Below, piece after piece: positions 33,052 to 35,405 of a stretch of DNA of 60,870 bases. The stretch comes from Clostridia bacterium. GTDB taxonomy: Bacteria; Bacillota; Clostridia; UBA1212; UBA1255. The stretch covers positions 1-60,870 of the forward strand of contig JAFWQX010000175.1 in the NCBI GenBank assembly GCA_017508875.1. The letters run 5' to 3'. How positions within the stretch are numbered: position 1 is the first letter of the stretch; every line of letters begins with the position of its first letter. Position numbers and translations under genes: made by a program. The notes beneath the pieces are model-generated. The model searched no databases and was not told where the DNA came from. It saw only the letters and a list, made by a program, of their open reading frames with translations.

Positions 33052-33513
33052 TTATAAAAACTGCCATATCGCTCCAGCTAATCCGGCAAGCATGAACGGA
33101 ACAAGAGGAAGTTTTGAGCTTAAATCAAGCCTTTCTCTTGTTTTTATCTTTCTTATAAGTCCTTTTATTATTTGGAATACGCATGCACTTAAGAAAGTAA
33201 TAAGAAGAAAATATAAAATACCGTAAATTCCTAAACCTAAACCAAGAGCGGTAATGATTTTAACGTCAGCACCGCCGATCCCGCCTTTAAGCGCAGGAAT
33301 CGCTGTAAAAATAAATCCTGTGACCGCACCTGCTAATGCTAACATCAAAGTACTCGTTCTATGATCCTTAACGTAATCATAAACAGTTAGTACGATTCCC
33401 GCAGCGGCAATAACGATCGAAAAGACGTTGTTAACTTTATTCTTTCTTATGTCAAAAACGGATGCCGTGATCAGTACTGCGGCAATAACGGTGTAATAAA
33501 TTATTCTATCCAT
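33052..33513 (-). CDS. A24 prepilin peptidase, short CpaA/TadV-like form
   Basis: Highly hydrophobic; both catalytic Asp present (FDIRKNKV, GGADVK); C-terminal PLVPF; GAGGTG SD. Confidence 0.85.
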   Translation of the reverse strand: MDRIIYYTVIAAVLITASVFDIRKNKVNNVFSIVIAAAGIVLTVYDYVKDHRTSTLMLALAGAVTGFIFTAIPALKGGIGGADVKIITALGLGLGIYGILYFLLITFLSACVFQIIKGLIRKIKTRERLDLSSKLPLVPFMLAGLAGAIWQFL

Positions 33514-33594
33514 ATTGATCCACCTCGCAGCATCAACGATACCGCCTTTCGTTTATGATATCAAATTTATTTTTATTACCGGTTATTACTCGAC

Positions 33595-33675
33595 TTTTCC
33601 GGAAATATCCGGATATTGTCCCGATTTTTCCGGAAATTTCCTTTTATTTCCGCAAATTTCCGGGGGAAAATCCGC
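33595..33675. repeat. Phased array of about 8 degenerate palindromic decamers (consensus TTTCCGGAAA)
   Basis: TCC core at 33598, 33608, 33619, 33629, 33639, 33649, 33659 and 33671; perfect TTTCCGGAAA at 33596 and 33627; ATATCCGGATAT at 33605. Confidence 0.85.
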
Positions 33676-33688
33676 TGCAAAAAAAGCC

Positions 33689-33718
33689 TTGACATACCTC
33701 TTTGTGAATGACTATAAT
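33689..33718 (+). promoter_or_regulatory. Consensus sigmaA promoter for mgtE
   Basis: TTGACA-N18-TATAAT, implying a TSS near 33725 and a ~270-nt 5' leader. Confidence 0.8.
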
Positions 33719-33724
33719 CATGCT

Positions 33725-33992
33725 GCGGTAAATCCGTAAATCCAATTTTATTGAGAGGTGAAACAAATGGACGCCGGAGGTAGTAGTAATGCGGGTCCCG
33801 GACGAAGTAACGCTGATTCAGCTGTTCCTTTATGCTCTGTTATATCTTATTCATTTGTTTCATCCGCATTCTGCTTTATTTTTTAGTTTTTTGCCGAACG
33901 AAATAAATCGATAGAATTTCAGAAGGGTTCCGTATGCACAGTCTGCCCCCTTTTTAAATACCGGTATTCCGGAAAAAGGAAAGGAAAAGCCT
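33725..33992 (+). promoter_or_regulatory. Structured mgtE 5' leader (candidate attenuator/riboswitch)
   Basis: Long complementary segments 33757-33771/33850-33864 and 33783-33795/33863-33874, U-tract 33875-33892, second hairpin/anti-SD region 33921-33979. Confidence 0.6.
33767..33886 (+). CDS. Putative leader peptide (39 aa) MDAGGSSNAGPGRSNADSAVPLCSVISYSFVSSAFCFIF
   Basis: GAGGTG SD with ideal spacing before ATG 33767; stop TAG 33884-33886 lies inside the U-tract. Below the ORF-track length cut-off. Confidence 0.45.
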   Translation: MDAGGSSNAGPGRSNADSAVPLCSVISYSFVSSAFCFIF

Positions 33993-35405
33993 ATGCAGGA
34001 CGAGAATGAATTAATGAATGACGCCGAGAATATTCTTGATCAGAAGATAGAACTCGCGTACGAACTCATTGAGAAAAAAGACTTTCAGCAGCTAAAAGAA
34101 CTGCTCGGAAGCATGGAACCGGCAGATATTGCCATGATGCTTGAAGAGGTCCCGATCGAAAAAGTACCTCTCATTTTCCGCATTCTGCCAAAAGAACTTG
34201 CCGCAGACACGTTTGTCGAAATGGAGACTGATCAGCAGGAAGTACTTATCAGAGCATTCTCTGATGAAGAACTTGAGCAGGTCATGAGCGACGTGTTTGT
34301 CGACGATACCGTAGATATTATCGAAGAAATGCCCGCTAACGTTGTCCGGAGAATACTTAAGAGTGTAACTCCGGAGAGAAGGGCGAAGATCAACGAAATT
34401 ATGCATTATCCGGAAGACAGTGCCGGAAGTATCATGAGCACCGAATTCGTTGACCTTACCGAAAACGTTACCGTAGGCCAGGCTTTTGACAAAATTCGCG
34501 AGACCGGACTTAATAAAGAAACGATCTACACCTGTTACGTTATTGACGGAAACAGAAAACTTGTCGGACTTGTTACGGTCATGACGCTGCTCACCAGCCC
34601 GCAGAATGCGGTAATATCTGACATTATGGATGAAAACGTTATCTTTACGACGACTGACGCCGATAAAGAAGACGTTTCTAAACTGATCGAAAAGTACGAC
34701 TTACTCGCGATACCTGTTGTCGACCTGGAACACAGACTCGTAGGTATCGTAACGGTTGACGACGCTATCGACGTAATTCAGGAAGAAGCCGAAGAAGACT
34801 TCGCAAAGATGAACGCTATTACGCCGATGGAAAAGCCGTACCTTAAAACATCGGTATTTAATATCTGGAAGAGCCGTATACCGTGGCTGATGTTGATGAT
34901 GGTTTCCGCGACGTTTACAGGAATGATTCTTTCAAGATTTGAAGCCGCGCTTGCACAGTTAGTCGTACTGACGGCATTTATACCGATGTTAATGGATACG
35001 GGCGGTAACTCCGGAAGCCAGGCTTCGGTTACGATCATTCGTGGTATTTCTCTGGGTGATATTGAGTTTAACGATATATTGCGGGTCATCTGGAAGGAGT
35101 TACGTGTCGCTGCGCTTTGCGGACTGTCGATGGCAGTTGCGACATTCGGTAAAGTTATGCTGATAGACCATCTGCTGCTTCGGAATGACAGCATTAACTG
35201 GAGGATCGCTTTGATCGTTTGTATAACTATGGCATGTACGATCATCATTGCTAAATTCATCGGCTGTACGCTGCCGCTGTTTGCTAAAAAGATCGGTTTC
35301 GACCCGGCTGTAATGGCCAGCCCGTTTATTACGACTATAGTTGACGCCGTATCACTGCTGATCTACTTTGCTGTTGCTTCAATGGTTTTGCCGGCTTACT
35401 TCTGA
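33993..35405 (+). CDS. mgtE: Magnesium transporter MgtE
   Basis: N-domain MEPADIA, tandem CBS domains, RIPWLMLMM, MDTGGNSGSQ, DPAVMASPFITTIVD. Confidence 0.97.
   Translation: MQDENELMNDAENILDQKIELAYELIEKKDFQQLKELLGSMEPADIAMMLEEVPIEKVPLIFRILPKELAADTFVEMETDQQEVLIRAFSDEELEQVMSDVFVDDTVDIIEEMPANVVRRILKSVTPERRAKINEIMHYPEDSAGSIMSTEFVDLTENVTVGQAFDKIRETGLNKETIYTCYVIDGNRKLVGLVTVMTLLTSPQNAVISDIMDENVIFTTTDADKEDVSKLIEKYDLLAIPVVDLEHRLVGIVTVDDAIDVIQEEAEEDFAKMNAITPMEKPYLKTSVFNIWKSRIPWLMLMMVSATFTGMILSRFEAALAQLVVLTAFIPMLMDTGGNSGSQASVTIIRGISLGDIEFNDILRVIWKELRVAALCGLSMAVATFGKVMLIDHLLLRNDSINWRIALIVCITMACTIIIAKFIGCTLPLFAKKIGFDPAVMASPFITTIVDAVSLLIYFAVASMVLPAYF

Follow-up and report, generated by a model that had tools for sequence, protein, structure and literature searches.

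An apparently translated upstream reading frame as a candidate ribosome-read Mg2+ switch before mgtE and other Mg2+ importer genes of Clostridia

What controls a Clostridial Mg2+ channel gene that lacks an M-box? The question is raised by mgtE (33993-35405, plus strand, as are all features below unless stated otherwise) in an uncultured rumen Clostridia bacterium, of which we analysed one stretch of 60,870 nucleotides (nt), called here the window. The gene encodes a Mg2+ channel (Pfam MgtE_N, CBS and MgtE; TIGR00400, 445 bits) and is the predicted target of its leader; the closest MgtE records are those of a yak-rumen metagenome-assembled genome (MAG; 98% identity) and of a Ruminococcus sp. 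MAG (81%); the 98%-identical locus (L001) and the 81% relative (L002) served for close-lineage comparison. Mg2+ homeostasis in Firmicutes is the textbook domain of the M-box riboswitch. An earlier note, made by reading the letters of this DNA, had recognised no M-box before the gene, and a search of the leader against Rfam 15 agrees with it, giving no match at gathering score across the window, nor at E<=10 in 33600-34100, while five related loci reach 74-102 bits. The leader holds an upstream open reading frame (uORF), and we think it probable that it is a ribosome-read Mg2+ switch belonging to an undescribed family of translated-uORF leaders, which would be analogous to the enterobacterial MgtL and MgtQ leaders and unrelated to them in sequence. 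Our literature searches found no description of this family.

We compared the leader with those of 80 mgtE loci, taken from MgtE relatives with one genome per species. BLAST of the leader showed that, in loci with ~60% identical MgtE, only the uORF start region is conserved. A census of this region with the regular expression ATGGACGCnGGnAGYAGY located the uORF before mgtE at 46 of the 80 loci (MgtE 58-98% identical); its distance from the mgtE start is mostly no more than ~250 nt and reaches ~540 nt at a few of them. Another 4 loci are divergent cases. Similar leaders do stand before mgtE in many other Clostridia, as the earlier note had suggested, and also before genes of mgtA-type ATPases. 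With about 50 of the 80 loci, as against 5 with an M-box (L011, L013, L063, L076 and L080, by Rfam search), the MDAG-uORF type is the predominant leader of this mgtE clade. Both elements can stand in tandem, the M-box (78-102 bits) being followed by the MDAG uORF and then by mgtE in L011 (M-box 1118-1279, uORF 1353), L013 (971-1127 and 1322) and L063 (1151-1312 and 1368).

A second search was blind to the downstream gene. Scanning the DNA of metagenome contigs with the pattern GAGGTGAN{4,6}ATGGACGCNGGNRGYAG gave at least 120 loci. Among the matches listed, the same-strand downstream gene encodes an MgtE of the window's clade (52 loci), an MgtE of a 33%-identical clade (4 loci), a magnesium-translocating P-type ATPase (TIGR01524, 1172 bits; 47 loci) or a PRC-MgtE_N-CBS protein (2 loci); 11 were too short to assess and 4 were unclear or chimeric. 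A Mg2+ transport gene hence lies downstream in 105 loci, which is every assessable and clear locus of this list. That one leader is common to unrelated Mg2+ importers is the same argument as identified the M-box regulon, and by these matches MDAG-uORF leaders are a large predicted family before Mg2+ importer genes of Clostridia (mgtE, mgtA-type ATPases and MgtE_N/CBS proteins). In the window, these marks of the family are found together: a strong Shine-Dalgarno (SD) sequence, a uORF with the M-D/E-A-G-S/G-S start (MDAGGSSNAGPGRS), a helix that locks this start, and mgtE downstream.

Two side observations belong to this distribution. The leader MDAGGSRGIKPKGEEPGSGLPSGRLFFRDNYI stands before an mgtA-type ATPase gene and is found with very little change in dozens of assemblies from the human gut (L082-L198, about 35 contigs among the matches listed), from which we conclude that at least one abundant human-gut species carries the element. 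L009, L012 and L014 have no uORF leader; there, an array of 5-6 tRNA genes immediately precedes mgtE.

Is the uORF translated? In the window it runs over 39 codons from the ATG at 33767 to the TAG at 33884-33886, preceded by the SD sequence GAGGTGA (33755-33761), which lies 5 nt before the ATG; either GAGGTGA or AGGAGG is found before the uORF ATG in nearly all family members. Its peptide, MDAGGSSNAGPGRSNADSAVPLCSVISYSFVSSAFCFIF, contains two Pro residues, is hydrophobic in its C-terminal half, and opens with the conserved family motif MDAGGSSNAGPGRS. The frame, its SD and the two Pro agree with the earlier note, which had described a 39-codon frame with a strong SD and ATG, and a peptide with two Pro that is unlike MgtL; no match to RF01056 was obtained.

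For statistics on the uORF we used 89 leaders of less than 80% pairwise identity. Conservation over codons 2-15 amounts to 0.91, 0.93 and 0.43 bits at codon positions 1, 2 and 3, respectively, and the consensus peptide reads M-D-A-G-[S/G]-S-[S/N]-G-T-x-x-G-R-[S/R], with R mostly encoded by CGA. At the wobble positions of the Ala and Gly codons all four bases occur, the AGY Ser codons show Y only, and the G-R motif is maintained in frame despite indels. At least 20 open codons are present in frame 0 in 98% of leaders, compared with 58% and 9% for the other frames. Codon 2 is Asp in 85 leaders and Glu in 4; the metagenome members were chosen by a pattern that fixes GAC at this codon, and the unbiased count is that of the genome-derived set, with Asp or Glu in 43 of 43. 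For the first Arg, the rare codon CGA is used in 58 of 76 leaders (76%), against a background of 6.8% of Arg codons in the downstream genes; in the window it is codon 13 (33803-33805), in the context Gly-Arg-Ser. A Val-Pro-Leu stretch follows there at codons 20-22 (33824-33832), and VP[LI] occurs in 11 of the 89 peptides against 0.96 expected, with varying Leu codons (UUA, CUC, UUG, CUA). Altogether, 83 of the 89 leaders have CGA and/or Pro at codons 8-18. Beyond the first ~45 nt of the uORF, complementarity is conserved and sequence is not. The uORF thus looks translated. The earlier note had left the choice between a distinct class of Mg2+ riboswitch and a ribosome-coupled attenuator; the codon-periodic conservation fits a ribosome-coupled mechanism, although the terminator-like competitor envisaged with it is not family-wide, as described below.

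An observation on the start pattern of the uORF, ATGGAYGCNGGNRGYAR, stands apart from this. Besides the uORF, the 61-kb window matches it just once more, with a total of 0.05 expected; this match lies at 34992-35008 within mgtE itself, where ATGGATACGGGCGGTAA encodes M-D-T-G-G-N, a part of the conserved PMLMDTGGNSGSQ (PX6GN) pore motif. The invariant N-terminus M-D-A-G-S/G-S-S/N-G resembles the M-D-T-G-G-N-S-G stretch of this motif, and the likeness of the window's MDAGGSSN to the channel pore could reflect coincidence, common origin or function.

We then asked which pairings are maintained across the family. Each leader was divided into five segments. A spans -16 to +8 around the uORF AUG and B spans +6 to +47, while C takes up what remains of the uORF; D starts at the uORF stop and extends to the main SD, and E consists of the main SD and AUG. 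For the ten possible segment pairs, RNAduplex energies of cognate partners were compared with those of partners swapped between leaders (75 non-redundant leaders, 20000 permutations, every swapped pair being refitted). The rationale of this swap test, which we used instead of a covariance model, is that any alignment would have been fitted to the proposed helices. Three pairs stood out, with 0 of 20000 permutations as good in each case: A:C, which joins the uORF SD and AUG to the 3' part of the uORF (z -15.4); B:D, which joins uORF codons 3-16 to the stretch from the uORF stop (z -14.4); and D:E, which joins this same stretch to the SD and AUG of the transporter gene (z -8.8). The other seven pairs lie between -1.6 and +1.7, and a stricter subset of 51 leaders gave the same result.

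Within A:C, the Ala wobble base and the variable spacer between SD and AUG are paired at 0.63-0.80 with the cognate partner and at 0.37-0.56 with swapped ones, all pair types being present; the helix that locks the SD and start of the uORF is, on these comparisons, the best-supported candidate helix of the family. In 85-88% of leaders, the main SD lies within D:E. The D nucleotides used in B:D and in D:E overlap in 70 of the 75 leaders (median 21 nt), and the two helices are therefore mutually exclusive, as in an anti-SD switch. The uORF stop lies at the junction of C and D: counted upstream from the final base of the stop codon, the median distance is 6 nt to the end of C and 7 nt to the beginning of D.

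In the window, segment A (33757-33771), which contains the uORF SD, spacer and AUG, pairs with segment C (33850-33864), in the 3' part of the uORF, over 15 base pairs (bp) including 2 G-U; it is C that covaries with the spacer and Ala wobble positions. This helix (helix 1), already described in the earlier note as burying the start codon and SD of the uORF, is present in the minimum-free-energy (MFE) fold, and its cognate partner ranks 0.07 among swaps. Segment B (33776-33799, uORF codons 4-11) pairs with segment D (33925-33950) at -24.8 kcal/mol by RNAduplex, and at -30.0 kcal/mol, rank 0.09, in the swap ranking. D is an anti-SD block for which B competes with the SD and start codon of mgtE, and its GGTTCCGTATGCACAGTCTGCCCCCTTT is identical in L002 while the flanks diverge. 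The D:E pairing, of 33934-33956 with 33977-33998, has -12.7 kcal/mol and belongs to the MFE fold; segment E (33977-33998) comprises the mgtE SD (about 33978-33989) and start codon (33993). This anti-SD switch had been missed by the earlier note. Judged by eye, the conserved downstream block failed as a simple complement of B, and RNAduplex found an interrupted helix instead.

The window contains a further helix (helix 2), which had also been described before. Its 5' strand (33783-33795) lies inside segment B and its 3' strand (33863-33874), a proximal partner of B, just after C; it has 12 bp and a one-base bulge, shares 2 nt with helix 1, crosses it, and is directly followed by a U-rich run (33875-33892) that contains the uORF stop codon and is a possible lineage-specific terminator tail. 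The GCUG-AUU-CAGC hairpin reported in the enclosed domain is likewise present (33812-33822). Among the competing folds, the one with A:C and D:E has -69.1 kcal/mol (the MFE), the one with B:D -65.3 and the one with helix 2 -63.2, so that the first two are nearly isoenergetic. The folding energy of the whole leader is unexceptional against shuffled sequences (z -0.99), and the significance of these structures hence comes from the relatives and not from the sequence of the window alone.

The leader is transcribed. A sigma-70-type promoter, TTGACA-18 nt-TATAAT (33689-33718), matches the consensus at 12 of 12 positions, as had been noted before, and metatranscriptome contigs from three rumen or gut runs begin at 33735, 33745 and 33746, none of them upstream of the -10 box, which is consistent with the predicted transcription start. 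One DNA contig, unlike the RNA contigs, reaches upstream and begins at 33505; run X15, labelled RNA, was discarded, as its data are identical to those of a DNA-like run and cover the promoter. The strain in the RNA runs differs from the window at 33872, 33888 and 33898, and its contigs pass the U-rich run and extend to 33922 or 33948; Logan contigs of this kind cannot reveal termination efficiency.

Beside these transcripts we record two observations. The leader contigs of two independent sheep-gut metatranscriptomes stop exactly at 33922, which is 30 nt past the U-rich run and just before segment D; this shared end might mark a site of processing or termination, or else the assembly might have broken there at a strain variant. 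Palindromes of the TTCCGGAAA type form an array at 33577-33675, between the mgtE promoter and a divergent prepilin-peptidase gene (33052-33513, minus strand), with a further ATTCCGGAAAAA at 33966-33977, in an apical hairpin immediately before the mgtE SD, and a DNA-binding regulator may act at these palindromes besides the RNA switch.

How might a ribosome operate such a leader? We propose that ribosomes at the uORF start and on its early codons would mask A and the 5' part of B, so that neither A:C nor B:D could form. D would then pair with E, hiding the SD of the transporter gene, and the importer would be OFF; in this window, B pairing with 33863-33874 in front of the U-rich run may provide an OFF alternative. 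Upon failure of initiation, abortion of the nascent chain, or dwelling of the lead ribosome at the CGA/Pro module near codon 13, A:C would shut the uORF and B would capture the anti-SD segment D, exposing the SD of the transporter gene and turning the importer ON. By analogy with MgtL and MgtQ, low Mg2+ would be expected to favour the ON state, since a short, acidic nascent chain of small residues would destabilise ribosomes when Mg2+ is scarce. The Mg2+ response and its direction are thus inferred, and the direction is the least certain step of the scheme, the exact position of the ribosome being conjectural as well. In three members that bear terminators (L093, L114 and L165), D lies in the 5' half of the terminator, which agrees with B:D as the ON state.

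Several points weigh against this reading. What links the element to Mg2+ is gene association. In the window, D:E is weak and no better than with swapped partners. The conserved N-terminal stretches AUGGACGC and GGAAGUAG also take part in base pairing, and selection on the peptide is therefore not fully separable from selection on the RNA. A:C and the full B:D cross in pseudoknot topology, and the wiring depends on whether coexistence or exclusion is assumed: the two helices at full length look sterically unlikely to coexist, but A:C could feasibly form together with the initial 7-9 bp of B:D. MAFFT plus RNAalifold found no consensus structure in 20 full leaders, as the variable middle of the leader does not align, and covariation rests on the swap test, whose z-scores overstate independence given that the sequences are phylogenetically related. 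Finally, a terminator made of helix 2 and the U-rich run needs B free, which is awkward with a free B in the ON state, unless the ribosome is parked on the start region only.

This last point bears on the rival explanation that survives best, namely that the main output in this window is transcription attenuation. Helix 1 would then be the antiterminator, and helix 2 would form the terminator together with the U-rich run. The 3' strand of helix 2 ends right at the U-rich run, and helices 1 and 2 exclude each other (-37.0 versus -31.8 kcal/mol in the nascent RNA). In L002 helix 2 is kept with one compensatory change, and the swap ranking of B with C clearly favours the cognate partner there (rank 0.01), but only weakly in the window (0.16). 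The weak mgtE SD of the window and its weak D:E pairing point the same way, as do clear terminators that include D in L093, L114 and L165. On the other hand, the loop closed by helix 2 has 67 nt, which sets this helix apart from known intrinsic terminators, and it was not among the results of the terminator scan; it is not the G+C-rich, short-loop hairpin with a conserved U tract by which such terminators are recognised. The U-rich run is degraded in L001 and absent from L002, even though L002 keeps the helix. In the rumen strain variant, T33872A breaks one outer pair of helix 2 and the U-rich run is interrupted, and the RNA contigs of this strain cross the site. Across the 75 leaders of the swap test, B with C is not cognate-specific, which confines helix 2 to the close lineage of the window. 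We thus regard attenuation as the main output here as possible but doubtful, and helix 2 may conceivably be a lineage-specific terminator with helix 1 as its antiterminator. Of the competing-helix scheme put forward in the earlier note, the helix 1 lock stands and covaries family-wide; helix 2 does not share this covariation, its place as family-wide competitor is taken by the anti-SD exchange of B:D and D:E, and its U-rich run cannot be kept as a conserved terminator tail.

Elsewhere in the family, canonical hairpin-plus-U6 terminators lie between the uORF and the main gene in L093, L114, L165, L051 and L079, and the terminator of L093 contains the anti-SD-like GGGACUUCC in its 5' half or loop. 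From their sequences, these five are predicted to be transcription-attenuation variants of the same leader.

The leader might also be a ribosome-coupled attenuator that reads another signal, such as the charging of Arg-tRNA(ICG) or Pro-tRNA, translation capacity or polyamines, the Mg2+ transporters being only its output. The frequency of the rare CGA at codon 13-14 and the Pro or VPL modules would be in line with this, and the Salmonella mgtA and mgtCBR leaders respond also to proline and ATP (discussed in PMC8092293). Such a signal seems unlikely to us, however, as, among the matches listed, the leader is associated exclusively with genes of Mg2+ importers, which have three unrelated architectures, the Arg codon is single and not part of a run as in amino-acid attenuators, and the acidic residue at codon 2 is invariant, like that of the Mg2+-linked MgtL and MgtQ.

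A direct Mg2+-sensing riboswitch would explain the same genes in another way: the fold of A:C plus B:D, possibly a pseudoknot, would bind Mg2+ and switch the anti-SD, leaving the uORF a secondary role or that of unfolding the RNA. Three long-range covarying helices with a pseudoknot-like arrangement are the kind of fold that is strongly Mg2+-dependent, the gene association is that of the M-box, and AUGGACGC and GGAAGUAG sit inside helices. We nevertheless judge this improbable. The leaders show no conserved unpaired core that could hold ion sites, only complementarity being kept past the start region of the uORF, and the tandem placement behind true M-boxes suggests another input or another level of control. 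Codon periodicity, the Y-only Ser wobble, the in-frame G-R(CGA), VPL with four Leu codons and the constant SD and AUG speak for translation.

We give little credence to the stronger idea that the invariant nascent N-terminus M-D-A-G-S/G-S-S/N-G is itself the Mg2+ sensor. In this case, during a pause of the ribosome at the rare CGA or V-P-L module, a short, acidic peptide of small residues would be lodged at the peptidyl-transferase centre and in the upper exit tunnel, and the stability of the translating ribosome would depend on free Mg2+. If true, it would represent a new class of ion-responsive arrest or abort peptide in Gram-positive gut bacteria, acting beside the M-box or replacing it. 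Last, that the uORF encodes a functional small protein, for instance one that regulates the transporter from within the membrane, as MgtR, MgtS or MgtU would, is suggested by the hydrophobic C-terminal half of the window peptide and by the regulatory peptides of Salmonella mgt operons, but we reject it as highly improbable, given that only the first ~14 residues are conserved while the C-termini are unrelated, that lengths vary from 12 to 53 amino acids, that pairing of the RNA constrains the 3' part of the uORF, and that the peptide has no match among Pfam and NCBIfam models.

To our knowledge, ribosome-based sensing of Mg2+ through a leader peptide, as in MgtL and MgtQ, is known essentially only from enterobacteria. 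Should the leader be the ribosome-read Mg2+ switch that we favour, this way of reading Mg2+ would have evolved independently in Gram-positives, and it would explain many Clostridial Mg2+ transporter genes that have no annotated riboswitch, including those of mgtA-type ATPases in abundant human-gut and rumen Clostridia. It would also provide a compact natural two-state switch in which a uORF locks its own start site, and, with the invariant Asp2, the small-residue nascent chain and the rare CGA, a defined sequence for studying Mg2+ in early elongation.

Among known systems, the closest is the MgtL leader of mgtA in Salmonella and E. coli (RF01056). In common with it, the leader has a short uORF before a Mg2+ importer gene, an acidic codon 2, Pro and rare Arg codons around codons 10-13, and a presumed choice between alternative helices by the fate of the ribosome; in the subgroup MEAGSSSLYADPDPVPLG (L048, L055 and L070), DPDPVPL resembles the EPDPTPL of enterobacterial MgtL. 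It differs in its host, a member of the Bacillota and not of the Proteobacteria, and shows no similarity in sequence or to the covariance model (RF01056, E<=10). The window peptide, with its two Pro, is like the proline-rich MgtL peptide (MEPDPTPLPRRR...) only in the acidic codon 2. The uORF is also longer here (20-53 codons) and has its own SD and AUG locked by a long-range helix, and the output would be mainly sequestration of an SD, whereas that of MgtL is Rho-dependent termination.

mgtQ is an 8-codon uORF with Asp2 and Glu5 before mgtB of Salmonella, which works through an anti-ribosome-binding-site (anti-RBS) switch (Choi et al., mBio 2021, PMC8092293); in MgtL and MgtQ, acidic N-terminal residues destabilise ribosomes and thereby promote transporter expression (PMC8092293). 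Our leaders share with mgtQ a small ORF with Asp2 and, as their sequences suggest, a decision by ribosome occupancy or destabilisation on the pairing of an anti-RBS with the RBS of the transporter gene; an acidic codon 2 and anti-RBS pairing either with the RBS or with a segment that overlaps the uORF are both found. In contrast, mgtQ is intergenic within an operon, has 8 codons, and releases the RBS when translated, while the present element is a 5' leader with three covarying helices, a uORF start that locks itself and a CGA/Pro module, and the sequences are unrelated.

The M-box (RF00380) regulates mgtE and mgtA in Firmicutes from the same place, the 5' leader, and probably in response to the same signal. 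Unlike it, our leader has no three-helix aptamer and no RF00380 match (gathering score 44 bits), and carries a conserved frame with a signature of translation. The ermC and ermB leaders and the trp and his attenuators also let the position of a ribosome on a leader ORF select between exclusive helices that expose or hide an SD or form a terminator. Those, however, sense antibiotics or charged tRNA and do not lock the leader SD in a long-range helix, whereas in our leaders Mg2+ is the presumed signal, and conservation of the peptide is confined to the extreme N-terminus.

An orphan riboswitch candidate, the mgtE motif of Thioalkalivibrio, lies upstream of mgtE in one gammaproteobacterial genus (Narunsky et al., NAR 2024, PMC11109978). 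It too is a structure upstream of mgtE with the SD and AUG in a stem; we rejected it as the same element, as it is confined to a single genus and no uORF is described for it (PMC11109978). What is known, then, is a leader-peptide-coupled RNA switch before Mg2+ transporters of enterobacteria. What is new is a sequence-unrelated family in another phylum, with an architecture that appears to be its own: a uORF start that locks itself, a relay of three helices, and a CGA module.

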